A stretch of DNA of 64,000 nucleotides, taken from Bilabrum cf. latius (lineage: Eukaryota). Shown here in pieces: positions 4,887 through 55,471 of the stretch. The stretch covers positions 806,001 through 870,000 of the forward strand of contig OZ237760.1 of NCBI GenBank assembly GCA_965178125.1. The letters run 5' to 3'. Numbering within the stretch: the stretch's first letter is position 1; every line of letters begins with the position of its first letter. Below the pieces are notes generated by a model that was given only the letters and a program-made list of their open reading frames with translations, was not told where the DNA came from and did no database searches. The translations under genes were made by a program, and so were the position numbers.

Positions 4887-4921
<35 letters not shown>

Positions 4922-12884: not shown

Positions 12885-13122
12885 GTGAATGAAGCGGGAT
12901 CGCTTGCATTTGGAATTCGTAGATCTATTTCATCCTTCAAATCGCCACGCGAATGTTCGGTATTGAATATGCAGAAAAGACACGCAACTCAAGCCGCGAG
13001 AAGCCAGTTCGGGATCGGGACACTTCTGTAGCTGGTACTGCCCCCCAAGACAATTTGATCGGGTCGGATAAGAGCCAATTGGAACTAAATTGGACTATTT
13101 ATCACTTCTGTTTTTGCCAAGC

Positions 13123-14360: not shown

Positions 14361-14467
14361 TGATGAATCGCGAGTTGAACACTTATTGCGACCCACTTGG
14401 TGACTAGTTGTTAATTGATGAATCGCGAGTTGAACACTTATTGCGACCCACTTGGTGACTAGTTGTT
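14361..14467. repeat. Tandem duplication of a 52-bp non-coding unit (period 55)
   Basis: TGATGAATCGCGAGTTGAACACTTATTGCGACCCACTTGGTGACTAGTTGTT at 14361 and 14416. Confidence 0.92.
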
Positions 14468-14598
14468 CATTGTGCGACCGCCAGTGCAGTGCTGCATGCG
14501 ACCAGCCGCGCCTTGGATCACCCGGAGCTAAATTTATCGTGGTCCGTTGGGGGTTTTCTATCTGGTCCAAATTCTTCATTCGACAGCGTGACATTGCA

Positions 14599-17500
14599 AT
14601 GTTTGTCGTTCGATCCTTGCGTCCAGATCATGGAGAAGAGGCGGGGAGTGATGATGAGGACCACAGAGGTCGTTTGCGGCATTTGCAAGAGTCCAAGACT
14701 CAGTCCGGCACACGGCAGGCCCTAGATCGGGACAAACATGCTAACGTGTCCAGTAGAAATTCCAATCGCGCAACAGATTATTCATCTATGCATAATATAG
14801 ACCATCGACCAGCCCTGTCGGCGGGCCGCCGCCCACCGCCTAGTGCAAGGCAGCTTGGTTTCAAGTCGAAGATGACGCGGGATCGAGAGAAATAGGCAGC
14901 CGCTAGGGAGGCAATCGCAAGCTCAATCCGACAGCAACGGTCTGGTATCCGACCTGCAGATGTACTGCGCGACGCGGACAGGGCCGCCAGTGCCAGCCCC
15001 GGTGCGAGGCTGCCCCAACTCGGCCCCGCTGGCAGTGGCAGTGGAGCGACTGCCAGCGGACAGAGCACACCTATCCGGAGATTAGGAAGACTGCTCGAGA
15101 CAAACGACATCCTAGGCACTTCCTCCGCCCCTCCCTAGGCGTGGGCCACGCCGATGGCCCCGGCCCGGTCAACAACCGGGAGCCGGCCATCTGTTCCAAC
15201 GTCCCGCCCCCACTCTGCTTCGACGGCGCCGCAGCGGCCCAACCGGCTCGGCAGGCTGCCACAAGACCCTCAATGGGCAATTTCGACAGCAGAAAGTGGC
15301 ACATCAGGACCTGATGCTGGGCCCCAATCGGCTCGGAGGCCCGTCAGCGCCCGGAGCAGCACCGGTGCCAGTGCCTGGCGAGCTGGCGGCGGCACTCCCG
15401 GATATGGGAGTGGGAGGGGGTCCAAGACCGCCTCTAGGGTGCAGGGCATTGCGGCGCGAGCCAGTGCCAGGATCCCCGTGACCCCTCGCGGGACCAGGCC
15501 CTCTCTCGCCGGGCCTTCGCCGCTCGTGCGCAGGAGGCTGAGCAGCCGGCTGTCTTCGGCTCTCCCTGATAAGCAGGAGGGGGGCAGGGCTTTGGGCGCG
15601 ATAGGTGGAATTGGCGGGGATGGTGAATGGGATCAGGGAGGGGAGGGTTCCCCGCGGGGGCGCAAGTCGGTGACCTGGGGCCGCGTGGACGGCCGCGGAG
15701 GCGAGGTCAAGGGCGGAGGGGAGGAGGAGCAACGGGGTCTGTCCGGTGCTGATGGCGGTGAAGATGCTCGGTTTAAGCGGGAGCTGGAGGATGCCATGGC
15801 CCCATTACGGGAGCTGGAGGAGGACAGGGCGAGGGAAAGGGAGCTGCTGGCGAGGGGCGAGCTGCTGGCATCCAGCACGATGGAGGACAGGGAAGGGCTC
15901 GCTGCGGGGCTGTGGCAGGGCGTGGACATGGACACGGGAAGAGGAAGGGGAAGGGGTGATGGAAGGCCGATGCCGCCAACAGAAAGGCAGAGGAGGGCCA
16001 TGGGGGCTGGCGGAATGATGGGCATGAATCGTGGTGGGAGTGCTGGAGGCGCCCGCAAGAATCGAATGCTTCGAGTGTCCTCCATGGCTGTTGCGGCGGA
16101 GTCTGGCGGTGTGACGAGTGTCCTGAGAGGGGGTCTGGGGCTGCAAGACGGGGACGGTGATGGGTTAGACGATGGTGTGCACGGGGACGGGACTGATGCC
16201 GGGGCCGGCGCTGCAGGTGCCGGGAGGGGCGAGACCTCCCCTCGCATGGGCGGCAGCTCTGGTCGCGTGTTCTTCCTGCCCACTTCCAAGGCGGCTGGAT
16301 ACGGGTAGGTCGGGGAGGAGGCCCCCGCACCAGACGCAAGGAGGACACAGGAAGAGCCGGAACAACCGCAGACCCAGGCCCAGGCCCAGACCCAGACCCA
16401 CGGAGGGCTGCAGCGGCCCGTTGCTCCCGGGGCGTCAAGCGGCGGGCTGGTTGCACCGGAAGACCGGAAGTACCGCAAGGGCGCGGGTATGTACGGACAG
16501 GTAAGGCTTGTTCCCTGGACCGTGCTGCGCGCCGCCGAGGACGCGATGGCCACCACGCACGCTCTCGACGAGGACACGGCCTGGCACGTGGACGCCAGGG
16601 CGGAGAAATCCGCCCTGGTGGAGGAGGCCCGGGCCCGGAGGAACAGCGCGGGGGAGAGGAGCGGGGTCCTGGACACAGTGCTCAGCAGGCGGGGCTCCGT
16701 GACTGACGACAGGAGGGTCCTTTTGCGCGCTGCGGTGGACAAGGAGGCGGGTCGCATGGGAGTCGCCGCTGACCTGCCGCACCTGGACGGGGCTCGGACC
16801 GCGCACGAAGCCGCCCACACTCCCAGCGTGCGGAGCTTCAGACGGTCCCACGAGACGCACAGCGAGGCCACGCGCAGGACGAGGGCGGCTCTCGCGGCCA
16901 TGAAGGCCAGGCGGGCGGCTGCAGCCGCGGCAAGGGCCCAGCCCTCCCTGCGAGGACGGGCGCAGGAAATCAGGGCAGACGACACGGGGCTGGGGCGGCT
17001 GCTGCTGAACTCGGGAGTGTCGGAGGCGGTGCGTGCCATCATGGCGGGGGCTCCTTTCGACGCAGAGGCCGAGGGAGGAGACGGTGGATCAGGAGCTGGT
17101 GGTAGTGCTGGTGGGGGCGGCCATGGAAGGGGACCCCTAATGAGAGGAGGAGGAGGAGGGAGAGGTGCAGTTGCCGGCGGAACCGCGTCTGTGGACTCGA
17201 TGGCTCTCAGCGAGGGAGGCGCGGGATCGAGACCCGGTGGGAGCCGGGAGGCGCAGGATCCCCTGAACGTGGCGCGGGCGGCGATCGAAGCCGCGCAGAA
17301 ATCGCGTGGGATGGGTCAGGGCGGGTCCGTTGCGTTGGGAGGGGCCGGTTCTGGGCAGGACCCGCTGGAGCGCGTGGATGTGCGGCTGCTTGCAGCGGAG
17401 CTTGACGTTCGGGCGAGGGCGGAGGAAGTGGACGACGAGGCGGCGAGCGCGCGGGCGAGGGGAGAGGCCGGCGCTGTTCCCTCGAGTGCCTCTGCCATGG

Positions 17501-20500
17501 TGCTCGCCGCAGCGGCGGATGAGGAGGGGCCCGGCGTCAGCCGAAGGGAGATTTCCGGCGTGGCGCTGAGACGTTGGCTGGCTGCTTTCGAGCGGGGCAT
17601 GGGGGGGTTCGCTTCTCCCGTGCTGTACGCTGAGTCCAAGCTCAAAGAAGCCATGGCGCTGGTGAGACAGACAGCGAGGGCCGTTCCTAGGCCAAGGGCC
17701 CCTCGGCTGGTGAGCTAGGAGGAGCAACGGAGAGGGGATGGGCACAGACCGTTTCATAAGGCGGGGCCGTCCCGGGAATCGTTGGGCGTGCACGAGCTGG
17801 GCGAGATGCAGGCTGCGGGCGAGACAGCGTACCTCGTGGTGGACCGACCGCACCCCTTCACCGTGTCGCTGTCGCTGTACCTGCTGCAGCGGCTCAAACC
17901 AGAGCACCTTCTGGGCCCCGACAGCAGCGAGGAAGAGCAGAGGGCCCTGCAGCTGCTGAGCAGGGAGGCGGCGCGGGCGGTGTTCTTCCAGGCAGCCGAG
18001 GGCGGAGTGCCTGGGGGTGGGGGGTTGATCCACGCAGGCCGGCGCTCCTCTTTGTCCTCCTCCCTCGCTGGCTCGCTGGCTGGCACTGGCGGGGACAGGC
18101 CGACTCGCCCCGAGTCTGCTCTCTCCTCTGCACTAACAGGGGGCCTCGATACGCCCCTTGGGACAGACGGTACAGAGGATGGCGGGGGCGACGATGGACG
18201 GAACACGGACGCGGTGGGCCCTCTCGAAGAGGACCAGGACCGGGAGTCCGTGGGCGGCACGTCCGTGGGGTCTGCTGCCGATGCGGCTCGGGAGCAGGAG
18301 GCGGAGCGCGGCCGCAGCCAGCGGCTTGCTCTGGGCGCCGCGGGGTCGGTTCCGCTGCAAGGGGCGCAGAGGGTGTTTGGGTGGACGCCCCACTTCGCGC
18401 TAGCTAGGCGACTCAGGACAGACGTGCGCCATCTGCAGGTAGAAGAGGCCACCCAGCAGGTGGACAGGGCGTGGATGCAGGAGGAGCTGGGTCGCAGGAG
18501 GCAGGTGTTCAACACCACGGTGCGGCACTGGCAGTCGGGCATCTTGGCATCGTGCTTTCGTGGGTGGGTGAGGGCCGTGTCCCACGAGAAGGCGCAGAAG
18601 AGGAGGGCGCTGCGGTTCTTCCGCAACATGCACGGTGGATCGCAGGACCTTGAGAGGAAGAGGTTCGTGTTCGGGAGGTGGAGGACCAACGGTGCGGTCA
18701 ACCGCACGCGCAAGGCCAGGGCGGCGGAGCAGAGGGCAAAGACGAGGAGGGATCAGGCCAGGCGGCAGGTGGACGTGGCCTCGGACGCGCTGAGGGAGCT
18801 GGAGACCAAGGTGAGGGAGCTGGACGAGGAGAGGGGCAAGCGGAGGCAGAAGGTGGTCGCGCTGGAGAGAGAGCTCGGCGCGCTGCAGGACGAGAGCGAG
18901 GCAGCGGATCCGGAGTCGGAATTGCAGCGCGCGATGGCGTGGGTGCAGGCGGGGAGGCTGGGCGTGTCGCTGTCTGTGGGGGCTGCGCTTCGGTATGGCA
19001 GATGGGTGAGGGAGGGCGTGGGCGCGTCCGGGGCTGCGCTGGAGGGCGGTCAGGGTGCGGGCCGCTGGGTGCGGCTGGGGCACAGCAGCGGGTAGTAGGC
19101 AGAAAAAGAGAAGGAGGAAGAGACAGAAAAAGAGAACGAGGGTGATTCTCAGGACACTGGCACTGGGGGCGGTCCTTGGACCCGAGTCGTGTGGCGGGGC
19201 GCCGACTGGGCCTCTGTCTCGAGAGAGGCGGCGGTGTGCTCGGCGGGAGCCGAGGCTCGAGTGCGGAGGGCGGCAAAGGCCGCGCAGGAGATGGCTCGCC
19301 GTGCCAGTGTGACGAGTGCTGAGGAGCTCCGGTTGGTGCTTGCGATGGAGCGGCAGGAGCTCCGTGAAGAGGCTCTCAGGGAACAGCGGGAGGCGGTTCG
19401 GAGGAAGCGGGCGCTGACCGAGCAGCGGCTCAAGGCGTCAAGGAGGGCGCGGTTGGGGATCGTGCAGCATCACCAGCAGCAACCAGAGCCCCGTGGGGTG
19501 GGGCTCAGGGGCCGAACAGTCAGCACAGGCGAGGGCACGGGGCTGGATACTGCCCTGGATGCGCCCCCATGGGTCGAGGAGGGAGGCGATGAGGAGGAGG
19601 ACATGCCTTTGAGGGGGCGTTCGCGCTCGGAGCTGACCCCGAGGCGCCGGCGAGGACCCGCGGGGGCAGGTCAGGAGGCTGCAGGACAGGGAGGCGGAGG
19701 ATCGGCTGGGATTTGCGTGCCTGTGCCGGCCCCCGGAGAGCTGCTGGTGGCAGGCATGCGCCGCATGCTGGGCCCGTCCGCCGCCCGACGTGCCATCCTG
19801 GATGCACCGGCCGTGTTCCAGGCAGCGGTGTTGCCCCGGCTCTTGGGCAGTACCACTTCCATAGGGGCGGGGAGCGGCAGCAGCGCCGCTTCCGCGAGCA
19901 AGGCTTCACGCAGCCAGGGGCGTGCAGGGGGGCGCCTGCAGCCGCCAGCTCGCACCCGCAATCGGACGGCAGACTCCGCCCCGCCCTCGCCCTTCCAAGA
20001 CGGCAGGCCGATTACTCCGGGGTCGGTTCGTGGAGCCACACCGTCGGGCGGAGCCCAGGGAACAAGGAACAGAGCAGGGCGTAGACCCTTCAGCGAGGAG
20101 GACTCGAACCCCCCTCTAGGCTCTGCCGCCTCCACGCAGTCTGGGCTGGGCCCGGGCAACGGCCTGCCTCCCTCAGGCATGGTGCCCCGGCTTAGACGCA
20201 CGGCCAGCTCGCAGGAAACTGGAAGGGCCGGGTCCGATGCGTGGATGGGCGGGGCCCTGGCTCACCTGACCTCGCGGCAGACCGTGGCAGCAGCCCGGCT
20301 GGGCACCAGGATGGGGCTCCTCCCGGACTCGGACCCGTCCGGTTCCCCGGTGTGGGCTCGAGGGATCGATCTCTCCGTGGTGCTGGGTGGTGGCGACGGG
20401 GCGTCCAAGCACGCGCACTGCGTTTGGCCCGTTGTGCTCGAGGCGGCTGGTCTGCTGCATCCTGGGTGGCGGGCGAGGGGCATGCAGGGCGGCAAGGGTA

Positions 20501-23500
20501 GTGGCAGTGGCAGCGCCGCTTCAGCCGCGGGTATCATGCCAAGCAGTCCCCGAGGCAGCGGGCGCGGGATGCTGCGCTCCCTCGGGGGTTCGGGGCGCTC
20601 CATGGTGGGCCGTGAGTCACCTGAGAGTGGTCAAACCGGCGCGACGGGAGCGAGGGGTATCCTCGAGTCCGTGCTGGCCAGGCTGGGACCCTCTCGGGGT
20701 GAGGCCCAGGCGCTCTCTCCCTCTGCCGGGCGCGAGGAGCTGGAGGCACACCATGCAATAGTGGCGTTCTTCCTGTCGCTGGCAGGGGCGGGACACGGGG
20801 CGGCCAGCGCGCAGCAGAGACTGCTGCAGATCGCCCCGCCGGCGCCCGATGCGGGTGCCAAACCAGCAAGACGGAGCAAGGGCCAGGGACTGAGCGGCAG
20901 GACTGGCCAGACCCCGTACGTGAAGGCACTCGGGGATCTGCTGTCCCGCCGCACTGGTCTGGGTGAGAGAGACAAGCGAAGGTGGGCGGCATGGCTGGCG
21001 GCGAGGTCCCAGGGGATGGGGGTCTGCAGGACCAGCTCGGTCGGTCGGGGGTCATCGCGGGCGGCGGCTCGACTGAGGCGCGGGCAGGAGGCTGACGTGT
21101 CCGAGTACCTGTGGGGTCCGGGGGTCACGGGGCGAGCTGCAGAGGAGGCGCTGCACCTGGCGCAAGTGCCCCGGTGGCCCGACCTCCTGGCGGCGTGGAC
21201 GGCGAGGGCGAAGCGAGTGGCACTGCCAGCCCTGTACCTCGAGTCGGTGAGGCATGCGTGGTCCAGCGGCCGGCTGCAGACGCAAGGGTCTGCTGGCGCA
21301 TCGAGCAGTCGCAACGGCGGTGGGGTGATAGTGAGACCGTCCTCCTTGCGCGTGGACAGCGGTGCGGGACAGGGGCAGGGGCAGGGGCAGGGCGGGGCAG
21401 CGACCCCCTCAAGCATCGCTGGGGGCCAGCCAGATCCCTTGGTGCAGGCAGGCAACCAGGCGCTCAGGGCACCCGCGCAGGTGGTGAGCCTGCCGTATCC
21501 AATGGGTGGCTGCCATGCCCCCGGGCTAGTCTACTCACTCTCGACAGGGGGCTCGCAGCCATTGAGGGGCAGCGCGCAGTCCACGACAGCGCTGGATCGG
21601 CTATCCAATGCCGCGAGTGGGAGGGGAGTGGCAGGGAACTCCGCTGCAGCTAGCGCGACGACGATGCACGGCGGGGATCGGGAGGATGGGGGCATAGCAA
21701 CGGTTGGGGGCGACAAGGCTGAGGCACGGATTCGCCGCGTGTCGATTCGACTGCCGCACGAGACATCGGGCCAGCCCACTGAGTCGGGTGACGGAAGGAG
21801 TAGCCCGCGCGCCAAGCACCCTAGCCAGTCCAGGTCCGTGTTTGACCGCGCGAGCGTCGGAGCGGAAGACGACGCTGTGCTTGGGATGGCAACGCTGGCA
21901 GGGGCCGCGCTGGAGCGAGCAAGGGAGGCATTCTGGCAGCTGCAGGGACAAGCCGACCGGGTTGCATCTGGCAACGTGCTTGGCATCGACGACCTGCCAC
22001 CCCTGGGTCACAGTGCAAGTGGCAGGCAGGGCGATGAAGAGGAAGGCGGGGCAGAGGGGCACGGGCCCAGAGAAAAGGGCATGCTGGCGATGTGGGCGAC
22101 AAGTCGGGGGCCTGCCGCGGCTGGCAGAAGCAGCGGGGGCACAAGCGCGGCCTCGGTGCCGCCTCCATCACCATCTCCGCGCACGCCCCGGTGGTCGCAG
22201 TCCCCCGGCGCGTCACCCGCGATGATGCTGCAGGACAGCACAGTGGTGCTGGCGATGGGTTTGCTGTCCTTGGTTGGTACAGTGCACGAAGGTGCAGGTC
22301 CGCCGTTGGATAGTGGGAACGGCGCGTCGGTTGCCTAGCAGGTGAGATAGGTATATCGGCTGGGCTGGTCCTCTTCGCAGTGGCCGTGGAAGACGGTGGG
22401 CACCGGCACCGGCAGTGGCACCGGCAGCGGCAGCGGCAGCGGCAGCGGCAGTGGTGGAGGGTGCGAGGCTTCCAGCACCACGGTCATTGCGGACTCGAGG
22501 GGCGGCGCGATGGGGCGGGTGTTGCGCGTGTTGGCAGAGGCTAACAGCCACCTGCGCAGCACTGGACACGCCAGCATGCCCACCGGTGCCATAGGCAGCC
22601 CCAGCTCGATGGGCGGCAGCCGCAGGCAGCTCATCGCGCTCAAGAAGAAACAAGCCAGCGCGGCGCCGCCCAGGAGCAAGAGCTTCCGCCGACTCGCGTT
22701 GGGAACTGAAAGCGGGGAACACGGCGACGGATCATCCGGACCGAAAGCTCGTGCTGCTGCCCAGCTGGCGCCAACCCCCGGGCACGTGGCCCTCGCGGTC
22801 GCGTCCTGGGCTAGCGGCATCGGGGTGCTGGAGCGGGGCGGGGTGGGCCCAATGACGCTGTCCATCGGGCTGAGGCAGTTTGCCAGGGCTGTGACGAGTG
22901 CAGCTGTAGGATACTCGGATGGTGGAACGAAAGGAGCGGCAGGCAGGAACAGCAAGGGCAGCGATGTCGCTGGCGATGATGCTGACGATGGTCGCGCCAC
23001 ACCCGAGGCGGCCCAGCCAGAGGTTATCCACGAGGCTGGCGCGGATGATTGCGACTTGCAGCTGGTCTCGCTCGTGTTGGGCGATGACGATGAAGACGTG
23101 AAGGAGGGGAAATAGGGGGAGCATGTCACGGGTAAGGTGGACGGCAGCACAGCCTCGGGTGGTACCGAAGGACCTGATCCCACGGATGGCCCAGCCCCCA
23201 TCCCATCCGTCCCGATGCCTACGGAAAACCCGGAAGATGACGCAGATCGGGCGCTGTACGCTTCAGCGCTCGCTGCCAGGCTGCAGCACACTCGAGCAGT
23301 GCGCTGGGACGAGCTGTGGGAGGCTTTCCGCCTCGATGCTGCGGAGGGGGAGGAAGGGGGAGGCTTGCTGGGCGCGGCCAGGGGGGCTTGGGACGGGGGT
23401 CTGCACGCAGGCAGGCAGCCGCAGAGGAAACCATCTTCGTCATCGATGTGGGGTTCCTCCCGGTGGCTGCTGCAGGATCAGTCCGGGGATGTGGGGACCG

Positions 23501-26500
23501 ACCGGGGCGGCGGAGAATCGAATGGGCGAGAGGAAGATCCCCACATCCCCGGCCTGTTGCTCCCCTCCCGCGCCCCCACCTTCCTCCTGGGATCCATCCC
23601 GTTCCCTGCGGCAGGGGGGCAGGCAGACCCGCTGGCTAGCTCCGCCTCGAGCAAGGCCGGATTCGCGCCCCACCCCACCGCTGCAGACGCGTCGAGTGCC
23701 TCCCCAATGGCCGCTCCGCCCGCCTCCGTGCCTCTGCAGCTGCTTGCATTGTCGATGCGCACGCGGGGTGCCATCCCTCGCCGCGTGCAGCAGATGGGCT
23801 TTTAGCTCACGCAGGCGGCTGTGGAGGCAGCAGAGTCGCAGCTGCTGCCCCTTCTGCTGTCCCCTGACGCCACAGAGGAGCTGGTGGACTACTGCGAAGA
23901 CTCTGCAGGGGGGCTAAGGCGGTGGGCGCCCTTCGTGAGGGGACCCTCGGGCACATCTGCGGCTCACCACACAGAGCTCATGCACTCCTACAAGGCAGCC
24001 TCCTCCTCTTCATCGGAGGCCCACGCTCTCCTCGATAGGGTAGGAGGGAGCGAGGAAGAGCCAGCAGTTGCCCTGGGTCACCCCGCTGCCATTGTCGTGT
24101 TCCACCAGGAGCTATCGCTGGCGCACGCAGAGGCGCAGGGCGCGGCGGACCGCCTCCCCTTTGTATCCGCGGGCATGTCTGAGCTGGCGTGGGTCGGACG
24201 GGCCAGTACGCTGGCAGTGCAGCGGCAGGAGCAGGCCCGGCTGATGCAGGGCATCAAGTTGCAGTCACTTGGCTCCTCATCGGCACCGGGAGGCCCGCTG
24301 CAAGCTGGCAGGGGCTCTTCTGCTGCTGGCCCAGGCACTCCCTACTCCACGGCGACTCCGCGGTCGACGTCCCCGAGTCGGATGCAGAGCCAATCGGAAG
24401 AGGGCAGCGGCGTTCCTTCGCCATTGCCTCAGGGAGTCGGCACTGCCCGTGCTAGGAGGCACAGCCCGCCGTCTAGGAGGAGGGCACCCCGGCGGAGCGT
24501 GCTGCCGCCGGCCAGCAAACCATCGCGCACGGCCAGTCCATCCAGCGCGGTGTTCCGATCTCCCACACCGTTCGCGATGCCCAGCGTGGCGCTGACACCG
24601 ATGGGACCGCCACCCACCCCGGGCGAGGGCGCCATGATGTGGCAGCCTCAGCTCGCCCTTGCCCTGCTGCCCGCCCCTGAGACAGTCCCCTCCCCTCAGC
24701 TGCTGCCCATGCCGGGGTCGAGCTTCGACTGGCTGCGGCGGGACTCTGTGGCGAGCGGGATCGCGATGCTGGGGCAGGCGTTGGGATCTCGGGCCGCGCT
24801 GTCCCAGGCACCGGTCCAGGTGGCTGCTGCTGCCCTTCGGTCGAGGATAGGACGCCGCGGGGCTGGAACGGGCGGTGGTAGCGGCGGCCAGGAGCACCCG
24901 GAGAGTGGTGGTCCTGCGTAGCCGCGTCTGAACGACTCTACCAGGGGTAGCGTCCTAGCACAGCATGCCAGGGCACTAGGCGCGAGAGGGGAGCAGCTGT
25001 CCATCTACTCCATTGGGGCGGTGGAAGGGGATGGCGATGGACCCGAGGTACGGGGGGGTGCAGGTGCAATGCATGGCGGCGCGTTACCCCACAGAGCAGG
25101 CTCGACAGCAGACTAGGAGCTGCTCAAGGCGGTGGCAGAGGAGAGCCCGGAGGACAGGGCGGGCGAGACGCACGTCTCGCGGAGGAGGGCCCTGTGCAGG
25201 GGCCTGCTGGCGGGGGCGGCCACGGCCATCGCGGCGGGTGTCGGAAGCACGGAGCTCCTCGTCGCGGGGTCTTTGGGAAGCGGCAGAGGGCCTGCAGCAG
25301 GCGGAGAGCAGCGCTCCTTGCCCCCCGACGGCCCAGACCCAGCCCCGGGGGCAGCCTCCCGCGCGAGCACCGCTGGCAACGATGTGGACAGTGCGAGCAT
25401 CCCGGCCGTGGCTCATCCGGATGCGGCCTCCGTGGTGGGAACCAGCGCGGTTGCAACCAGCCGTGCCCTCAAGCAGGAGCGCGGTTGGCTGGAGTCGAGG
25501 GTCACGCGCGCCTCGTCCGTGGTAGGGGTGGCAGTACCAGCCGCCGTGGGCTCGGGAGCCGGTCCGCTGGATGGTTCCTGTCCGCTGGAGTCGCCAGATT
25601 CCTACGAAGAGCTTCTGCAAGGGGTGCTGCGTGACGAGTGGAACCGCAGTGCGGTGCTTCCATGCGGGCTGGGGCCGCAGCAGATCGCGGCCCGCGTGCC
25701 CTCCGCCTCCCGCCTGGCCTTCGAGGCAGAGGACCTCGCTGAATCGCAGGCTCGACAGGCCGTGGCCGAGCTGCACGCGATGGATGCAGCGGCGCACAGG
25801 GTGGAAAGGGGCGTGTGGCACGCGCTGGCGAGCGAGATGCGCGCGATCGAATCCGTGCGGGGGACCGAGGTGGGCGCGGGAAGCTTCGTGGAACCGTCTG
25901 CTGCCGTGGTGGGTCCTACAGCAGGGGCAGCATCAGAAGCGGGGGCGACAGGGCACAGGGGCCGGCCGCCTCGAGCGGGTGGTACCTCTAAGGCTGCCCC
26001 CCTGGTGGCCATTGGCTCCAAGGGGGGGGAGGAGGAGCCCGAAGCGTTCTCCTTGGAGGCATTCGGGCGAGTCAGCTCGGAGCGGGTGGCGGATCTGCTG
26101 GCCACTGAACTGCACAAGGCAGCGGAAGCCGCTGCCGAGGCTGCCGGCGAGAACTTGGCGGGGGGTACGAGCAGCTCTGTGCGAGGAGGGTCCGCCTCCA
26201 GTGGCAGGGGCAGGGGCAGGGGCAGGGGCACGGGGGGGCAAGCTGGGGACGGCCCCGCCCTGCGCAGGGCCCGCAGCAGCCGCCGCATGAGCTCCAGTGA
26301 CCTTGCTGAAGCTGCTCCGATCATCGAGGCTGTGCAGGCCGTGCTGTCGCAGTATGCTGGACTATTGCGGGGGGTGTTCCGACTGTACGCGGGCGGGGGG
26401 AGTCAGTGGAAGCCCATGTCTTCTTCCCAGTTCATGCGGCTGCTCAAAGACTGCCGCGTGCTGGGCAAGCGGGGGGGCGGTGGCAGCAGCGGGGGGTCAC

Positions 26501-28272
26501 ACCGGCGCAAGGAGAGGCGCGACGGTGGGGCGGCGGCCTTCTCCCGCGCGCAGGCGGACGAGCTCTTCCACATCGCCAACCGGGAATCGGGGGTGCCTGC
26601 CACCCTGGATGCCATCAGGGAACACCAGGCCTCCAAGGAACAGGCGGCCGTCGCGGCAGCTGCGAGCCCAAGGGGTATCGCCGCCGGGTCCCCCCTCCGT
26701 CGGAAGCGCAGCATGCGCAAGAAGCCTTCCTTCTCCTTCTCCCCGTCGGCTGGCAGGGGAAAGGCGAGGTCGGGGCTGCAACAGACGATGGACGCGGCCC
26801 TGCCACTGGCAGATGCAGTCAGCTCCAGCCCCCGGCGGAACCGACGCGGCACCGCATCGTCCTCCGGTAGCAGGCACCGCGGCAGGAAGCACTCGTCACA
26901 CCAACCGAAGCAGGGCCAGGGTGTGGAGGGCCAGTCGGCCGCGTCCTCCCGCACGGACTAGGGGTGGGCACTGGAGGAGGACGCCGGAGTGGAGAACCCG
27001 GAGGATGCGCTGACTCCAAGAGAGTTCATTGAGGCGATCGTGAGGGTGGCGTGCGCGGTATACGCGGATCTGAGAGTGGGCGCGGTGGCGCGGGAGGGTG
27101 GTCAAACCGCGCTAGAGGCTCTGGAGGATGCAGGTGTCGGCATAGGAATGAGAGCGGGAGAAACGGGAGGGACAGACGCACAAGCAGCAGAGGGGGCGAG
27201 GAGCTTCGACGAGCAGGCACCCGCGCCCATGCACGTGCGTCTGGAATTCATGCTGAGCAGGCACCTGCTGCGGCACGCGAACTCGAGGGAGCCCGGTGCG
27301 TTCCGGGTGGCGCTGGCCCAGGACGGTCCGTAGCTGGTCATCGCGCATTTCTCCAGGCAAATCCGCGCTGTGTTCGAGCACGCGTGCAGGAGCCAGCACC
27401 GGCACTGGGTCAGGCGATACCGCGGTCGCTGGGAGCAGCACCTGGTGCACGTCAGGGAACAGCGGGAGCTGGCTGCCCGCCGGCAGAGGAGGAGGAACTT
27501 TGGCATCGCGGGATCGCGGGGGAGCGGAAAAGGGAAGGGTAACACCGGGGTACCTGGTGGTGTAGATGCCTCCGGCATGCCTCCGTCCATCTTCCGGTCC
27601 AGCACCATGCCTGACAGGCCGCAGGGCAGGTAGGACCGGCTGAGAAGCGCGTCCGGTCAGGAGTAGGAGCAGGAGCAGGATCTCGATGCCGGGATGGATA
27701 TCGTGGACGTCAAGAACGGGGGCTCAGGAGGTGCGGTCGGGTGGAGGGGCGGCCCTGATGGCCGGCAGTCAGCTCCCCTTGACGTGGGTGAAGGCGAGGG
27801 GGGGGGTGCGACACCCGATGAGGAGGATGCAGTGCCGCCGCCCCCCAAGCGAGCCCTTGTTCTCTGGGGCTGGATCCGGTGCCTCAAGTTCCTGGGGGTG
27901 CTGGCTCCGAAAGGGGGTCAGCTCACCGCGGGGGGCGGGCGCAGGCTGCCGGCCCGGCGAGCTGACGGGAGGTGGGGCCTGTTGTCTGCCAAGCACGCCG
28001 CCCGCATCTTCAGCAACTGTCAGAGCGAGGAGGAGGAGCAGCAGAACGAGGAGGAGGGGGAGGGGGGGGAGGGTGGGGCAGGCCCGACCGTGGGGATGCA
28101 GGCAGGGGCTGGCGATAGTCCCGCCCGAGACGCAGACGATGAGATGGTGTTCCCCGAGTTCGTGGAGGCGCTGTGCGCCACTGCAAACTTTGTTGTGAGG
28201 GAGCCGCAGCTGCCGGCGGAGACGAGGCTGGAGCTGTGCTTCCAGCATGTGCTGCCTGCCGTGCGAGGGTGA
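14599..28272 (+). CDS. Very large (~4557 aa) uncharacterised protein, mostly low-complexity, with a coiled coil and C-terminal degenerate EF-hand-like segments; 16 in-frame TAGs
   Basis: ORF-track pieces 14452, 15154, 16489, 17782, 19189, 22396, 23137, 23821, 25132, 26989, 27370 and 27694 share one frame. TAGs at 14893, 15136, 16306, 17716, 19093, 19096, 22336, 22348, 23113, 23803, 24919, 25114, 26959, 27331, 27631, 27664. Motifs MSSSQFMRLLKDCRVL, LTPREFIEAIVRVA, MVFPEFVEALCATA. Ends TGA. Confidence 0.8.
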
Positions 28273-28513
28273 CCTTCGAGGGGGGATGTACGGTGCACAT
28301 GGCCCAAAGGTGGATCGGATCAATGGCTTTGGGCTCCGGATCAGGTATTTTGCGATCCAAATTTCCATTAAATCTTACCATTGTAGAAGTTAAGAAAGCT
28401 ATAGCAGCACAATAGGCAATTATTTCATTTAACTGTTACAATTCCTTTGTTTAGTGGCAGAAGAAAGTCATTGCTACCCACTGAACACCGTGATAGGCCG
28501 GCGATTGGCTTCC

Positions 28514-31500
28514 ATGTGCAACTGCTCAAACAAACTTGCGATCAGCACCCTTTTACTGGTGGCGGTCATTGGTTCTGCGAGTACCCAACACAAAATGATC
28601 TCGGAAACATGCTGCTCAGTGGCCCAAATTATTCCACGGATTCTGAGAAAGGGAAGCTACACTGAAGAAGCCAAGCAAGTACAGAGCTGGGCACGAACCG
28701 CATGCAATTCGGCTGATCAGCAAAATCTGCCTGACGATAGCGTTCATAGTTGCATACCACACATATTTGCAGTTGTGAACGTCACCGCTATGGTCTCTCG
28801 CCACGGTCCAGGCGCAGCAGTGCACGGCTCCTTGCGAACATTGGAGAGCACTTTCACAGGCAACAGTACCGTGCTGCAATAGATCGAGAGGTCAAGCTTG
28901 CAGATTGTGCGGACATGTGGCGCCTAGCACGGCTGGTGGAAGTGCGATCATTCTCCCGGTGCTGGCACTGGCGCCGGCCCCGGAAGCAGACGGCCTCAAG
29001 CTGCTGCATCCCGACTTCATGCAGCCAGGGCGGAAGCAGCCTCCATCCTGCTGAACCGACTGGCCACCGCCTCGGAACTTGAGGAGCGAACCGACGCAAG
29101 CCTCCGCGTCGTATCTCACTGGGTGTCTGCCACCGCACGATCTAGCCAGCCGTCGCTTGGTACGGCCGACGGCGCTGGCAAAGACACCGATGAGACTGGC
29201 ACATCTTCACACTACAAGTAGGACCCGCTCCCAAAGATCGGCACAGCGTCCCTCCTGCTGCGATTGGCCGCTGCGCGAGCCTTGCTGGCCGGTGCCGCGC
29301 GCGTGCTGGGTTCATCTGCAGAGGAGAGCGGCAGCGGCAGTCCGGACCCCCACGCCTTGTTGCTTGCAGGCCACGCGAGCCAGCAGGCCGCTGAGGGCCT
29401 GTCGAGGGTAATCCACGAGCAAGGGGCCAGGGGCAGCCTGCCAGGACACGAGGCTCTGGCGCTGATGAGGGTGCAGTCCACTGCAGTCCAATTGCTGCTG
29501 CAGGCAGGTGCGCAGAGCGGGAGGCAGCTTCGGCGAGACGCCCGAGCAGCTGGGGTTGGGCTGGTGAACCAACGGCAAGCAGGGGCAGGGGAAAGACAAA
29601 TCGAGAGTAGAGGAGGTGCCTTGGAGCCCGAGAGCGGTGGAAGCTCTAATCAATCAGAGTTGATGGATCAAGCGTACAGTGGCACCATCAGTGGTGATAG
29701 TCTCGGCAAGGAGCAGCTGCCAGCGCATTGCACCGAGCTGTGGCCTGCAGAGGGGCTTGCCACAGAGGTTTGCGCCACTGTGCAGCTCGTACACACAATT
29801 GGTGCCTGGAATCAAGCACAGCAGCAAAATGGAACTGACGGAGACCCCAGAAGCAGCAGCAGCGCTTCAGGCCTCTAGATCCGTGTCCCGGCAGCAGCCA
29901 GGCTCGCCCCTCGATTCGCGCTGCGTGCTGCCCGCGCCCTTGCTGCCACTATTCGCAATGCTGGTCCGATGGACATCGCAATGAATGCAACGCAAGGCGT
30001 GCTCGTGCTGCGACAGGTGGCAGGCAGCGTGAACGAGACTTGGGAACAGCGCGCAGCTTGGCTCAAAGGGGTGCAGCTGCAGCGATAGGTGGCTGCTGCT
30101 GCGGTGGGCATGGACCACACGGCAGTCGCGCTGGCGAAGATGCCTGCAGTGGGCCTGTCACCGAGCTGGCGCATGGGCAGAGACAATCGGTACGGGCGAG
30201 AGAGGGGGGAGCGAGACCCGCCGGCCGAGGCATCCTGGGGCGCGGAGAGGCGCAAGGCGGACGATGCCCAAAGGGTGGATGGGACGTACGACGCGACGGG
30301 AAGTCTAGCACGAGCAATTGGCGGGGCGATCGTAAGCTGTGCCAATAGTTTGGCAGCAGGGGGTCCTGCAGACAGGACATGCGCGCCCGTGCAGTGGGCA
30401 AGCAGCAGCACTAGCAGCGGCGGCGAGCGTGATGGACAGCTCACAGCCCTTGTGGATACCCTGGTCCCACCGCAACTTGTGATGGATGCTAGAGAAGCGC
30501 GGGGCTAGAACGTCTCGAGAGGGATCCGGTTGGTGGTTCCCTCTGCTGCGCAGGGCCCGGTCGTGCTGGCGCGGTTTGCCTGTGGCCGTGCACAAGCGAT
30601 GCAACAGCTGTGGGACCTCGAGCTGGCCTTCAACACCACGTCTCGCGACCCAAGAATTCATGCCGGTTCCCACGGCCTGACCTCGATCAATTTCGATGGG
30701 CCGGACTTTGAAGAGGCTCAGGCGAGCTACCTGGCAGGCCTCGCTGCTGCCCGGGTTGCCACCGACACGATAGGTGCCTTGCACAGCTGCTGGGACGCAA
30801 GGCAGAGGGCTTTGCGGGCTGTGGCAGCCGCCTGTAGGTTGCAGCGTGCGGCCGTGCCGTTGCATGACCAGGACATGTGCCAGGAGGTGTTCACTCGCAT
30901 GGCCTCTGGTTGGCTTGGCAATGCTGCAGGTGGCGCCACGAGAGCCGATGGGGTGCTAGATCGAGCTGTGCTCGTGGGTGCTCAGGCGGAGGCCATGCTG
31001 ACAGCGCGAGGCGCAAGACTGCTGCGATCTGCACCATATATCACACGGAAGGATCGTACGGGGGGGGCGGGTGACGTGCCCAGGATCGGGCCAGCTGGAG
31101 ACCCCCACCTGAGCTCTCACTTGGTGGAGTGGGAGCGGCTGGTGCAGCATCGGGTCACTGCTGCAGCGCGCAGGGAGGGCGCCTTGTCCGAGACGCTCTC
31201 TCTGTGGGCAGATTCCCCCGAGAGGTCTGCACAGGAGCATGTGCGGGTCCTGGGGCGAGCGGCGGTCCAACATGGTCAGGTCTTGCTTGGCTCGACTGCC
31301 GATGCACTGTCAGAGGCGGGTCTGGGCCACACCTCTGCCGCAAGCCAAGGCACGCGCGTATTCAAGGGCGTGCAAACCTTGTCTCGGCAGTCGGTACTGC
31401 ACCTTGCTCTCCGGTCGATGGGCGGTAGCCTAGCGGGTATCCTGTGTCAGGCACCCCGCCCGGAGAATAGGACTGGTGGCGAGACCAACGACGGCGACGG

Positions 31501-34500
31501 AGGAGCCAATGCCACTGCAGCATTTGGGCCAGCAGTGGTGGTGCCAGTCAGCAGCTCGTGCCCTGCGTCGGAAGCGATGACCAGGCTGCACGCACTTCTC
31601 ATCTTTCGCATGCGGCAGGCTCTCCTTGGTGCTCTCATGGCTGGAGTGGACGGGAACGATGCGTTGGGCAGCACCGTGAGAGCTTGGAGCTGGGACATAG
31701 ATCGCAAGGAGATGGAATCGATCCCTTGTGTAAGCGAGTGCATCCCAGAGGCGCTGGCAGCGGGCACGCCAGAATTTGAGGGGGCAAGCGAAGGCGCCGG
31801 CCCAATCGTCACGCTGACACGCGCCGTGCAAGCCAGGCCAGCGTGCACCGCGTGCCTGGCCGCCCTCTCGACACATATCCGGGTGGAGGGCATAGAGCAA
31901 GCACGCACCAGGAGCACGCGATCCTTCAATGATTCTCATGGGTAGCATGCGTTGGACCTGTACGAAGGCGAAGCGCCCTGGTGGGCCGTCTCGCCCCGAG
32001 GGACGGGGTCTTGCACCTGGGCATCCGTGGCGCACGAGAATGGAGACACGCGCAGCTAGGGGCTGCGCACATCGCTCGAGGCTTTCTCCGTGGAGGACTG
32101 CCAGATCGGTGCGGTGATGATGGCACGCAGGGTGCAGCGCACTGCAAATGCGGCAGCCAGCCTGGGTATGGGCACTGACGCGACCACCGCCGCGATGCTG
32201 GTGCTGCGTCATCGAGCAGGATGCACAGGCGCGTACGCCCGTGGGGAGCCGTGCGACCGGGACTGGAGCCTGGAGGCCGGTATGGGAGACCATGCCGCCA
32301 GCGTGCTCGACGTGGGAGGGGGTGAGCAGCTCGTGAGGATGTCCGCACTGGCGCGAGTGGCCCTCGAGGCTGCCAGGCCGAGTCTCGGCTCACCTGCTGG
32401 GTCGCATGGCTCCAGCTTCAGCGCTGGTGTGCAGGTCGGCTGGGAAAGAGCCTGGCTGGATGCGCTCCCCGGGTCCATCCGAGCCGCTGAGAACCATGAG
32501 GTGTTGGCTGGACACGCGATGGCGAGGGGACTGGCGCCCGGGCGACTCAAGGGGCGTGCAGCGCGGTGGTGCAGGGCGGGGGGAGAGGCGGGCCGGGCCC
32601 GAGGGGCTGACGCGGGCTGCTTCGAGGTCCTTAAAGGCGGAGGTGGGCGCGCTGTGGACGGGTTCCTCGAGATTCCGACCAGTTCGTCGGGCCTGGATCC
32701 GTGCTTGGTGGCAGGAGGTGACGCTGCGCAGTCCTTGCGGAACATATCAGCGCAGGTAGACCGTCTGGTGGCCGGCAGTGCACTGGACCGTACCAGCTCC
32801 GGACATCTGGTGCCACGAGTGAATGGCAGCCAGGTGCTAATTCGGCCTGGGTTGGGATATCGGGGCGGGTCATGGGCCGATGCGCCGCCCCCTGCTGCGA
32901 CCCAGCCGCTGCTTCCCTCACCACCAATCCAGCACCACGGCCACGAAGAGGCAGAGATGGACAGGGCTGTCGATCGCCTGGACGCCGCGTTCAGAACCCG
33001 GAATCTGCAACTGTGCGGGGACAGGGAGCAGATTGAGCCCCAGCTCAAGGCATACGCAGCCTATCACCTGGTGGGTCCTCAGCTGCGCAGGGAGGCCCTG
33101 TTCGCCCTCGGGGTATGCGATAGCGTGTGTGCTGTAGTGAGGAGGCGAGAGGAAGCTGGAGCTGGTGCATGGGCAAGTGAGAGTGCGAGCAACCACAGGG
33201 GCAGTGCGGGGCCATACCCCGGCGCTTGGGTCGGTAAGCTCCTTTGGTACGGTGCGCAGTGCGGGTGTGGTGCTCCCCGCTGGGGTGGGCGGGGTGGTCT
33301 GCTCGCCCAGGACGTCCGGGGCGACCACGATGAGGAGCGACTGGCTTCTGGGGGCACCTGGCTGCAGATGAACGTGCGGCACCCGGGTTGGGCCGAGCAT
33401 ACGCTCCCTGCCCTGCGACCCCCCCGCCAGGCCATCGAGTCCAGCGGGGGGGTGCCCCCCTCTAGCGTGCTGCAGCTGTCAGCGATATGGCCGGGCTCCC
33501 ACGTGAAGCCGCACTGCGGGCCTCATAACCTGCGATGGAGGCTTCAGGTGCCACTGCTTGTGCCCTGCTATCGAGACTGCAACTCGAGCAGCCCCGGCTT
33601 CGATGGGCCCCGCATCCGGGTGCACGGCACTGCGCATGGATGGGACGAGCAGAGCCCGGACATGGCACCAGGCGAGCTTGGCTCCGGTGGCGCGGGGAGT
33701 GAGGCAAGCGCCGCTTCACTGCTGCAGGGGCGTGCACTGCACTTTGACGACGCCTTCGTGCACGAAGTGGATTCGCCCCATGCCCCGGGGACGTGCCGGT
33801 GGGGCGGATCACCCAGTCGAGCCCGGGGCGCGCCATTCCCTGCTGCCAATGCACAAGTGCTGCCTGACGGATCACAGGGCGTGCAGGAGGAACCGCCGAG
33901 CGACACCTGGCTGAATGCCGCACATGTCCTGACCGCAGGCCTGCACACTCTGGGCCCCGTATCGGCCCAGCCCGAGGGCACGATGCCGTGCAGGCTCAGG
34001 AAGAGGTGGGGCCTGACTGGGAGAGGGGGGGAGGGATTGTGGCCGAGGAGGAGTCTCAGTGGAGGTGCATTGCATGGGGGTGATCAAGGGCCGGTGCACA
34101 CGTGGTGGAGCGGTTCCATCCTGCACAATGCAAGCGCGGGGCTGCCCACGAACCGCAGTGCGCGCTCCGGTGATGATCACAGTACGGTACCATCCCTATC
34201 ATTACCATCACTATCATCATCACTGCCGCTGCCAGGCCGCCGAGGAGAGGAGAACGAGACCGAGGCAGGGGAGGGCAAAGCAGCAGCGGATGCAAGCGGC
34301 ATGTGCAGGCAGTACCCACAGCCGGTGGTGGACCCCTCAGATGAGGCATTAAACCTGGAGGACCGATCTGATGCAGGTCACGTCGGCGGGTGGCGGCGGT
34401 CGGTCCACCGCAGGCTGTGCGTCCTCGACGCGGAGGCTGCTTGGCAGGTGTGGACGGGGCTGCCGAGGATTGTGCTGCTGACCGACTTATGGCCGCCATC

Positions 34501-34552
34501 CATGCACCTGGATGCTGATCTCCGACAGAGAGTGTCCTCGACACAGTCATGA
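28514..34552 (+). CDS. Large (~2012 aa) signal-peptide protein with a C-terminal aspartyl/asparaginyl beta-hydroxylase (2OG-Fe(II)) domain; 8 in-frame TAGs
   Basis: N-terminus MCNCSNKLAISTLLLVAVIGSAST. TAGs at 28880, 28925, 29219, 29876, 30086, 30506, 31943 and 32057 join co-frame ORFs. ASPH-type motifs PGSHVKPHCGPHNLRWRLQVPLLVP, FDDAFVHEV, RIVLLTDLW. Ends TGA. Confidence 0.82.
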
Positions 34553-36945: not shown

Positions 36946-38364
36946 ATGCGCTCAAGAAAGCGCGAAGCGAGCCATGACAAGGTTTCATCTGCTCGGCTCG
37001 GCAGCGGCACATTCTCTGGTGCATTCACTGCTATGAAGAGCGGCAACTGCAATATTCTGGTTGCCTGCGTGGGTTTGGCGGTTCTCTTGAGCACTACCTT
37101 TTACTTGGGGCGCCAATCAAACGGGGCAGCTCTGCAATATCCAGAAGATTTGTCGCTGCGTTCCGGTCAACAGACTACCAGAGCTCGAATGGACGATCAG
37201 AATACAGACAGTATTGGACCTAGCTTTGTTGAGCCAGCCGTGATGGGTGCGCTGGAGGACGACGACATCCGGTGCGCTGCAAGGCTGCTGGTGGAAGCCA
37301 AGCAACATATAAAGCCTGTCCTCGTTCCTAAGGACGTCATTGGGCTGAGCTTGATTTTCTGTGGCAGTTCCGGAAGATCATACTTGGAGTACGGTAGCGG
37401 TGGTTCCACTCGAATGGCCACTGCTTCAAAGATGCTGCACGACAATGGGGGCGGACAGCACAGCGTGCTCATGGTGGAGGGCAGCCAACACTTTCTTGCC
37501 ACTTTGGCAGACAAGCTGTCGGCGGATGTGACCAGGCTGCAGCCAGGGACTCCGCCCCTCGTGTACTCTACGGCCCCCTTGCTCGGCCCCCTTGCTCCTT
37601 GGAGCTACCCGGTTGGTTCGAAGCAGGTACGGAACAAGCACGGGGTGGCAACATCGAGCGATACCAATGTGTTCATGCATTCCTACCCCATCTACTCGAA
37701 GGGAGGCCAGGAGATGATGCGCCAGTCCGCCCTATTCACCCCTTCGAACCCGCCTCCCCTTCGCCCAGGATGGCCGCAGAGGGTATTTGGCAGGCCGGCC
37801 AGCCGCCAGGACAGGGACGTACCGGAGTTCGTGTTCGTGGACGGCCGATTCCGAGTTGCCTGCGTGCTCCGGGTGATCAAGGAGTGGGGAGACGTTCCCT
37901 TGATTATGATGGACGACTTCAGCGCGAGGGAGTGGCAGTTCGGTACGGTGCTGAGGTTCTCAAGGCCATGGCTAGGGCTGGACACCTTCGTGAGGCAGGG
38001 CGTAGCCTCCATGATGAAGATGGCAGAAGATGGAACCACTGGAACGGCACATCGCAAGCCGGTGTCAGCTGAAGAGCTGCGCGAGCACTTGGAGCCTCTG
38101 TCCGAGCTGCCCGTAGTAGGGCTGGAGGAGGCCAAGCAGTACACTGACACGCAGATGCCCAAGTTTTTGTCCAAGATCCTGAAGAAGGCAGGCCCCGCTC
38201 CAGCCGGTTTCCTCAACGACAACTTCTTGGAGCAGTCGGAGAAGATGTCCCTACGAAGCATGGGAATGCAGAGGGCTCTCTGGTTCAGGGGCTTGCCCAG
38301 GGGGGAGCGGGACGAGGCGGCGCTAGATGCAGCGATCGAGGCGTTCAGCTTCATCGCGCAGTGA
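36946..38364 (+). CDS. Type II membrane class I SAM-dependent methyltransferase-like protein (472 aa; start could be the later ATG at ~37034)
   Basis: TM segment ILVACVGLAVLLSTTFYL; motifs YLEYGSGGST and FVFVDGRFRVAC..MMDDF. No TAG; ends TGA. Confidence 0.7.
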   Translation: MRSRKREASHDKVSSARLGSGTFSGAFTAMKSGNCNILVACVGLAVLLSTTFYLGRQSNGAALQYPEDLSLRSGQQTTRARMDDQNTDSIGPSFVEPAVMGALEDDDIRCAARLLVEAKQHIKPVLVPKDVIGLSLIFCGSSGRSYLEYGSGGSTRMATASKMLHDNGGGQHSVLMVEGSQHFLATLADKLSADVTRLQPGTPPLVYSTAPLLGPLAPWSYPVGSKQVRNKHGVATSSDTNVFMHSYPIYSKGGQEMMRQSALFTPSNPPPLRPGWPQRVFGRPASRQDRDVPEFVFVDGRFRVACVLRVIKEWGDVPLIMMDDFSAREWQFGTVLRFSRPWLGLDTFVRQGVASMMKMAEDGTTGTAHRKPVSAEELREHLEPLSELPVVGLEEAKQYTDTQMPKFLSKILKKAGPAPAGFLNDNFLEQSEKMSLRSMGMQRALWFRGLPRGERDEAALDAAIEAFSFIAQ

Positions 38365-38672: not shown

Positions 38673-39715
38673 ATGCTTCGGCGCGCATGCGTTGGATGCA
38701 GGGCGTTTGCACAGCGTTCCAAGCCCATGCTGCGGTGGCAATCCTCTCTTCGTGGGCCACCAGCCTCGTCGATCGAGGCACGGACTGTCCGGTTCGCTGA
38801 CATGGAAGGTAACTAGCAGTTTGGAGTGTTGATTGATGGTGAGTTTAAGCTGGACGTACGATGCTCGTGTTGCATGAAGCGCACTGCCGTCCACGCAACC
38901 ACCCAAAGATCCCACATCAACGCCCCGCAGAAGCGACAGGCAGGTGGGCCAATTCCATATGGAGAGATGATAACGGGTAGATTCAGGTTGGCGACGACAA
39001 GATCGAGGTAGGCCTAATCATGCCGCCCGTGGACCCACCGGCAATCTTTTGCATTGGCCTGAACTACCTAAACCACGCCGCGGAAGTCAAAATGGAACCG
39101 CCCAGGCGGCCCGTGGTGTTCATGAAAGCAAACTCGTCGGCAGTTGGCCACCTGAATCACATTGTTATCCCAGAAGTGTGCTAGAAGCCGCCCGAGGTGG
39201 ACTACGAGGCGGAGCTGGCAGTTGTGATCGGCCGTGAGGCCCTCAACGTCTCGAAGGAGGACGCGCTTGACTACGTGCTGGGATACACATGTGCTAATGA
39301 CGTGACCGCGCGGCGATGGCAGGGCAAGAAGGGCGGCGGGCAGTGGGCGAGGGGCAAGTCTTTCGACACGTTCGCTCCCTTGGGGCCGTGGGTGGTCCCC
39401 GCCAAGCTCATTCCCGACCCGCAGGCCCTCCGCATCCGCACGATTCTCAACGGAAAGGTGGTCCAGGATGGTAACACGAGCGACATGCACTTTGGGGTGG
39501 CAGAGCTCATCGAGTTCTTGTCACAGGGCACCACGCTGCACCCCGGGACAGTCATCCTGACGGGCACTCCTGCGGGCGTGGGGTACACGCAGGACCCCCC
39601 TGTGTTCCTCAAGGCAGGAGACACGGTGGAGGTGGAGATCGAAGGGGTGGGTAAGCTGACAAATCCGGTTATGGAGCAGCAAGGTGACGTGCTAGTCGGG
39701 GGGCAGAGGATATGA
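38673..39715 (+). CDS. FAHD2: Fumarylacetoacetate hydrolase family protein (FAHD2-like) with predicted mitochondrial presequence. Intron 38839-38930; in-frame TAGs at 38814, 38978, 39182
   Basis: [12 protein letters not shown]... presequence; [77 protein letters not shown]. Ends TGA. Confidence 0.9.

Positions 39716-55440: not shown

Positions 55441-55471
<31 letters not shown>

Follow-up and report, generated by a model that had tools for sequence, protein, structure and literature searches.

Changes to the nuclear genetic code are rare among eukaryotes. To our knowledge, codes that separate UAG from UAA were not known before 2017, and only a handful are recognized today. The code in which UAA and UAG both specify glutamine (NCBI translation table 6) occurs in hexamitin diplomonads, many ciliates, Dasycladales and other green algae, and the aphelid Amoeboaphelidium. 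Ciliate genomes are typically AT-rich, with very short introns.

Reassignment of UAG alone to glutamine is reported for Iotanema spirale and for the ciliates Hartmannula sinica, Trochilia petrani and Protocruzia tuzeti (PMC11687900). In I. spirale, UAA and UGA are described as stops, with UAA dominant (PMC5304391), and Panek et al. (2017; PMC5304391) predicted a tRNA-Gln with a CUA anticodon and an eRF1 that has lost UAG. A change in the GTS motif of the I. spirale eRF1 is also reported (PMC9161772). UAA is given as the preferred stop in phyllopharyngeans and table 15 ciliates (McGowan et al., 2024, PMC11687900). UAG is reported to encode leucine in the rhizarian exLh and in TARA phyllopharyngean metagenome-assembled genomes (MAGs), and serine in Scotinosphaera (PMC5304391, PMC11687900).

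We analysed a 64-kb stretch of DNA (the window, by which the whole stretch is meant). The best explanation, to which we assign a probability of about 0.92, is that it is nuclear DNA from a GC-rich (~65%), intron-poor eukaryote whose UAG has changed from a stop into a glutamine codon and whose genes end mostly in UGA and more rarely in UAA. The code is of the NCBI table 15 type (UAG = Gln only). As described for I. spirale (Fornicata), a nuclear code is involved, UAG alone has passed to glutamine and UAA is still a stop. In both cases glutamine was deduced from orthologue columns and a tRNA-Gln(CUA) decoder is predicted. I. spirale, an anaerobe described as lacking a visible mitochondrion-related organelle, uses UAA as its dominant stop, whereas 13 of 14 genes in the window end in TGA and the DNA is ~65% GC. 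H. sinica, T. petrani and P. tuzeti share table 15 with the window, which differs in its GC-rich DNA, its very long genes and its use of UGA as terminator, and which appears to have none of the ciliate traits named above. The reported fraction of UAG at conserved glutamine positions in table 15 ciliates is 58% and 70% (PMC11687900), compared with 8 of 12 sites here. GC content and stop usage set the source organism apart, which argues that it is neither I. spirale nor one of the table 15 ciliates. UAG is uncoupled from UAA here as in exLh, the TARA phyllopharyngean MAGs and Scotinosphaera, but the residue differs (leucine or serine there). TAG specifies glutamine as in table 6 organisms, and in both the codon is probably decoded by a tRNA-Gln whose anticodon has mutated. 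Unlike in those organisms, TAA is not a sense codon (0 of 17,784 codons).

A search of full-text literature, made without the organism name, returned no GC-rich eukaryote with UAG = Gln only, which is weak evidence that the case is unpublished. We tentatively suggest, as a possibility somewhat more doubtful than probable, an independent and undescribed origin of UAG = Gln with UAA as a stop. It would lie in a GC-rich clade that terminates chiefly at UGA and of which public assemblies include at least three members, in a compositional setting opposite to that of every described case. Another lineage, and in particular a GC-rich one with UGA as its main terminator, would count as independent evidence on why UAG and UAA usually shift jointly and on how eRF1 can drop UAG alone. 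A related question is whether GC pressure, under which TAA becomes rare and TGA remains as the stop, can make TAG available for capture. The finding also has a practical consequence. Annotation with the standard code fragments the genes of this organism and its relatives, as public protein fragments show, and metagenomic pipelines therefore misjudge such contigs.

Genes of the window

The GC content of the window is ~65% (58–77% in segments of 4 kb), and the coding strand shows a purine excess on the same 4-kb scale. We identified a gene for a RAD54-like SNF2 helicase (846–5240, plus strand) with Pfam matches to SNF2-rel_dom (2.6e-57), Helicase_C and ZGRF1-like_N; it has one in-frame TAG and ends in TGA. 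A DOT1-like methyltransferase (8049–10973, plus strand; Pfam DOT1, 9.7e-13) has four in-frame TAG codons and a TGA end. The longest gene, referred to below as G5, encodes a giant low-complexity protein (14452–28272, plus strand) of 4606 codons as counted from the listed start, the true start being uncertain. G5 has 16 in-frame TAG codons and ends in TGA, and its C-terminal region is kept in relatives. The gene that follows (28454–34552, plus strand; 2032 codons) includes an Asp/Arg hydroxylase-like stretch, eight in-frame TAG codons and a TGA end.

A gene of the FAA_hydrolase family (38849–39715, plus strand; given as a stop-to-stop frame with the start not set) was recognized by Pfam (5.2e-80) and by PDB alignments. 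It contains two in-frame TAG codons and ends in TGA. Both TAG codons fall at variable or unaligned places of the PDB alignments and are uninformative on the residue. Two genes encode coiled-coil proteins: one on the minus strand (39799–44208) with four in-frame TAG codons, the sole gene model with a TAA end, and one on the plus strand (46649–55774) with 3041 codons, three in-frame TAG codons and a TGA end. Between them, an NADP isocitrate dehydrogenase (44670–46121, minus strand; Pfam Iso_dh, 5.9e-60) lacks TAG, ends in TGA and serves as a well-conserved control gene. Its PDB matches reach 2.9e-182, and atlas and PDB searches identify it as a generic eukaryotic NADP-IDH. An AGC-type protein kinase, referred to below as G12, is encoded on the minus strand (58865–62479; 1204 codons), with a Pfam Pkinase match at 8.9e-51 and a PDB alignment. 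G12 carries nine in-frame TAG codons and ends in TGA.

The window genes are genuine eukaryotic nuclear genes (SNF2/RAD54-like, DOT1, Pkinase, Iso_dh and FAA_hydrolase). Several encode very long low-complexity or coiled-coil proteins, and most are unbroken over kilobases. Introns exist in at least one gene: near 7398–7493 (minus strand) we identified an exon of UBL5, a single frame piece that matches only residues 9–37 of 73. The atlas search gave no named family at ≥0.9 for an unexplained protein of 472 amino acids. Scans of the 64-kb window found no tRNA genes and no Rfam matches, and no eRF1 gene was identified within it.

Sense and stop codons

With standard stops, the longest frame in the window is 1642 codons. 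Treating TAG, and no other stop, as a sense codon yields frames of 4613, 3051 and 2040 codons. TAG occurs in frame 58 times among the 17,784 codons of 13 gene models (terminators excluded), and 11 of the 13 contain at least one, including the SNF2, DOT1 and Pkinase genes. The two in-frame TAG codons of the FAA_hydrolase gene are additional to this count. TAG accounts for 58 of 814 Gln codons (7%). Internal TGA and TAA were both absent from the 13 models, against 232 and 28 expected from the rate in the remaining two frames on that strand; these zeros are partly built in by the way in which the frames were delimited, but the frame lengths are not. TGA and TAA together occur off-frame at 1.46% per codon (520/35,542). 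At this rate, by our own arithmetic, the chance of a 4613-codon frame without either is ~e^-67. Almost all genes tolerate TAG, which is a sense codon.

If TAG were still a stop, the in-frame occurrences would have to be due to pseudogenes, assembly errors, short in-frame introns, RNA editing or leaky readthrough. The UBL5 exon, which indicates introns in at least one window gene, is a point for this explanation. However, the same frames of 13 genes hold 58 TAG codons and no TGA or TAA, and pseudogenes would collect all three stops as well as frameshifts. The DNA is identical in several runs, which speaks against assembly errors. Introns are excluded because the relatives align gap-free, with one residue per TAG. 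Readthrough at 16 sites in one gene would leave almost no full-length product. We consider the probability that TAG remains a stop to be very low, and retain its reading as a sense codon.

Among 14 frames (the 13 models and the FAA hydrolase), 13 end in TGA and one, the coiled-coil gene on the minus strand, in TAA. The ends of G5 and G12, immediately before TGA, match the ends of P0123 and P0136, two proteins of relatives. No frame ends in TAG, in a set of frames that were delimited by reading TAG through and of which two C-termini are checkable in relatives. Termination is usually at UGA and less often at UAA, which ends one gene model. Given gene ends at TGA or TAA and no in-frame occurrence of either, the code is one in which UAG specifies glutamine and UAA and UGA are stops (table 15).

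TAA is scarce throughout the window (36–59 per frame, versus 87–117 for TAG) and terminates just one gene model. Both observations could be explained if UAA and UAG were both glutamine codons, as in table 6 (hexamitin diplomonads, many ciliates and some green algae), with TAA made rare by GC-richness. CAA and CAG occur in the gene models at a ratio of 106:650, however, and at this ratio ~9.5 in-frame TAA codons would be expected if TAA were read as glutamine (28 at the off-frame rate), against none in 17,784 codons. Reading TAA through as well extends coding frames by 25–78 codons, or by 2–157 codons upstream of starts, and merges no large frames. The first in-frame stop met upstream of the listed start is TAA in 9 of 14 genes, at a distance of 1–13 codons, and TAA in these places fits untranslated leaders. 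A table 6 code is thus very improbable, and UAA is retained as a stop.

TAG could also have a dual use, as glutamine within genes and as a context-dependent stop at some gene ends (cf. Condylostoma and the karyorelicts). A gene that truly ended at TAG would be extended unnoticed, because the open reading frames were defined by TAG readthrough. An excess of TAG in the first tenth of the gene models (14 of 58) could be taken in the same direction, but it is more likely that some genes truly start downstream of the listed position and that these TAG codons are in leaders. In addition, all 14 frames end in TGA or TAA, and the two ends that relatives allow to be checked, those of G5 and G12, coincide with TGA. 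The plus-strand coiled-coil gene has a TAG at codon 2985 of 3041, and the 56 codons that follow are free of TGA and TAA. Dual use is accordingly quite improbable; the simpler assignment, with TAG as a sense codon throughout, is preferred.

The residue at TAG in relatives

We searched the last 707 residues of G5 against 1.84 billion cluster representatives and identified P0122 (893 aa, 91% identical over the match), P0123 (192 aa), P0124 (163 aa, 61%) and P0125. For G5, P0132 (1580 aa) and P0133 (470 aa) were retrieved in addition by a word-index search of shorter proteins. For G12, the word-index search identified P0134 (588 aa, 88%), P0135 (75%), P0136, P0137 (78%) and P0138, whereas a search among proteins of similar length to G12 gave best identities of 28–41% and no close relative. 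A single contig of 16,547 bases from a run assembly encodes P0132, P0133, P0122 and P0123, which are consecutive pieces of one gene, and P0134 is encoded on a contig of 5.4 kb. This relative is ~87% identical overall, and its genes were apparently called with TAG as a stop and hence split. Because the gene pieces match calling with TAG as a stop, glutamine in the relatives was not imposed by an assumed code.

The 87% relative spans 13 window TAG sites, with 12 aligned residues and one gap (G5 codon 1548). Glutamine is present at eight sites (G5 codons 619, 3118, 3555, 4170 and 4294; G12 codons 276, 380 and 483), at five of which at least 14 of 16 flanking residues are identical. The remaining residues are aspartate at G5 codon 1089, valine at G5 codon 1549 (which adjoins the gap), lysine at G12 codon 949 (four residues before the end of the fragment) and glutamate at G12 codon 1158. 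Of these four sites, two are either next to a gap or among the final four residues of a fragment. Glutamine is also present in more distant relatives: P0135 (75% identical) at G12 codon 276 and P0124 (61% identical) at G5 codon 4294.

The initial annotation had proposed that TAG encodes glutamine, and a comparison of orthologue columns was set beforehand as the refuting test. The columns bear the proposal out, with glutamine at 8 of 12 sites, aspartate, valine, lysine and glutamate once each, and leucine, tyrosine and tryptophan at none; in the 75% and 61% relatives the residue is glutamine too. Neither leucine nor serine occurs at any of the 12 aligned sites. UAG = Leu, the assignment in the rhizarian exLh and some phyllopharyngeans (tables 16 and 22), was rejected on the absence of leucine.

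Residues other than glutamine at 4 of 12 sites amount to a mismatch of 33%, versus 11% at CAG and CAA in the same alignments. A substitution table from these alignments (3949 pairs) has glutamine kept in 139 of 156 cases and glutamate in 235 of 271. Based on this table, the log10 likelihood of the 12 residues is -9.0 if TAG is glutamine and about -18 for the next best residues (tyrosine, lysine and glutamate), making glutamine ~10^9 times likelier than any other residue. Glutamine constitutes 4.3% of the aligned residues of the relative. Window TAG codons are seldom at positions conserved among distant homologues. From sequence comparison, glutamine is supported as the residue at TAG.

Glutamate was considered as the residue, as for UAR in Blastocrithidia and peritrich ciliates or UAG in the ciliate PL0344. 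The TAG at G12 codon 276 is matched by the alpha-F helix glutamate in each of the four listed PDB alignments (to RSK2 kinases), the TAG at G12 codon 1158 faces glutamate in the relative, and several TAG codons are in acidic runs (e.g., EGEGEEE-TAG-GE at 12012). However, the two nearest relatives have glutamine, not glutamate, at G12 codon 276. The clade thus has glutamine where other AGC kinases have glutamate, which removes the sole point for glutamate. Over the 12 sites glutamate is ~10^9 times less likely than glutamine; a window glutamate faces glutamine in just 7 of 271 pairs of the same alignments; and glutamate codons adjoin TAG 6 times, against 9.7 expected. A glutamate code, with glutamate at 1 of 12 orthologue sites, was rejected as extremely improbable, and glutamine remains the assigned residue.

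The ends of the relatives' fragments provide a further comparison. P0133 ends before a window CAG at G5 codon 3480, P0122 before a window CAG at G5 codon 4391 and P0138 before a window CAG at G12 codon 953. These three breaks, which fall exactly on window CAG codons, agree with the earlier suggestion that TAG is one C-to-T step from CAG. P0134 and P0137 end exactly at window TAG codons (G12 codons 743 and 276, respectively). P0132 ends in a diverged stretch, ahead of a window GCT codon, and P0135 in an unaligned tail; neither end can be used for this comparison. We infer that the breaks in the relatives are probably TAG and that their glutamine codons are probably CAG or CAA. The window, the 87% relative and the 75–78% relative have in-frame breaks at the same codons. 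A scan of metagenome DNA with P0137 returned, among the best 80 loci, matches that are 33–49% identical and represent generic kinase motifs; the contig of the relative was absent. An alignment search of genome contigs and viral contigs with the G5 C-terminus identified no relative.

The CAGGAG repeat and decoding of UAG

The site that first suggested glutamine is a hexanucleotide repeat in G5. The letters at 27658–27681 are CAG GAG TAG GAG CAG GAG CAG GAT, as the initial annotation gave them. Tandem Repeats Finder identified a period-6 CAGGAG array at 27658–27680 (plus strand; 3.8 copies, 88% matches), in which the TAG at 27664–27666 replaces one CAG. The 18-mer made of three CAGGAG units occurs twice in the window with at most one mismatch, versus 0.01 occurrences expected from shuffles. 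The TAG is codon 4405 of the 4606-codon frame at 14452–28272 (plus strand), and the site reads Q-E-[TAG]-E-Q-E-Q. The substitution of TAG for CAG within the repeat agrees with a shared meaning of the two codons, but as a single site it is not proof. The coverage of the relatives excludes codon 4405 and the adjoining TAG at codon 4394; for codon 4405, this is because the gene calls of the 87% relative break between G5 codons 4390 and 4415.

Seven places where TAG neighbours a glutamine codon had been listed in addition to the repeat. Six of these are in frame in gene models (22336, 35758, 55601, 36421, 43465 on the minus strand, and 28877), and the seventh, at 38814, lies outside the 13 gene models. 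The frequency with which TAG adjoins glutamine codons does not significantly exceed chance: CAG or CAA occupies 8 of 116 neighbouring slots, versus 4.75 in shuffles (P = 0.11). The conclusion of the earlier reading is nevertheless supported as correct by the protein alignments, although its own evidence was weak.

Given that TAG specifies glutamine, the TAG at 27664 is a third Gln codon and the peptide is Q-E-Q-E-Q-E-Q. The simplest route to this TAG would be a C-to-T change in CAG. By analogy with known systems, the decoder may be a tRNA-Gln with a CUA anticodon, one base from tRNA-Gln(CUG), which would pair with UAG and not with UAA. The eRF1 would be predicted to lack UAG recognition and to keep recognition of UAA and UGA.

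Seven sequencing runs are known, and the contigs of four were compared over 14434–34433. No alternative letters were found in the contigs of these four public runs over this interval, and there is thus no TAG/CAG variation among them. Contigs of three other public runs have the same letters at the repeat, and a contig of run X5 spans 26537–27886 with 0 differences from the window. The identical letters in contigs of other runs show that the TAG at 27664 did not arise as a mistake of assembly. The joints in the run contigs are short (side 21–29), are located at low-complexity repeats and are read as repeat artefacts.

Distribution of in-frame TAG codons

The density of in-frame TAG differs between genes in the window, as counted for each gene model. 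None occurs in the genes for NADP isocitrate dehydrogenase (483 codons) and at 36946-38364 (472 codons), and the helicase gene has a single TAG in 1464 codons. The kinase gene (58865-62479, minus strand) has nine in 1204 codons, and the giant gene (14452-28272, plus strand) has 16 in 4606 codons. Across the whole window, most in-frame TAG codons are located in poorly conserved parts of genes. A fumarylacetoacetate-hydrolase-family gene (38849-39715, plus strand; Pfam 5.2e-80) contains two in-frame TAG codons, both at variable or gapped sites in alignments to solved structures.

In nine of the 14 genes, the closest in-frame stop 5' of the listed start, 1-13 codons away, is TAA (e.g., G1, the RAD54-like helicase; G10, the isocitrate dehydrogenase; and gene models G3, G4, G6, G8, G9 and G11), yet TAA is the least common stop triplet in the window. 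The leaders seem locally richer in A+T than the genes.

Individual proteins and gene structure

The product of G4 (13090-14358, plus strand; three in-frame TAG) is probably a secreted protein, given its hydrophobic N-terminus. A long acidic KEEEPAAEETKEEE-type repeat makes up the C-terminal half of this protein, and no Pfam family was identified for the gene. G11 encodes a coiled-coil protein of 3041 codons, the end of which (52043-55774, plus strand) also matched no Pfam family. Its C-terminal motif, FDLEFFEELEDLKWRY-TAG-QAAAK, may resemble the C-terminal end of CEP290, a ciliary protein.

A single UBL5/Hub1 ubiquitin-like exon was identified at 7398-7493 on the minus strand, inside the frame 7170-7805. 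The match is limited to residues 9-37 of the 73-residue protein (E 7.6e-08); thus, the gene is split by introns. The long genes around this small gene are, in contrast, uninterrupted.

In the ~3 kb at 55800-58860, GC is reduced to ~58%. All six frames lack a long open frame, also when TAG is treated as a sense codon, and two frames searched against Pfam gave no match. This region may contain intron-rich small genes or be non-coding.

Word depth in sequencing-run contigs

In contigs of the sequencing runs compared with the window, word depth increases 10- to 30-fold at 15768-16434 and 27774-28440 (e.g., 1055 vs. ~35 in public run X4). These are GAG/GGA-type low-complexity stretches common to many other contigs and do not reflect a changed copy number of the gene. 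Many loose contig ends occur at 28026-28072.
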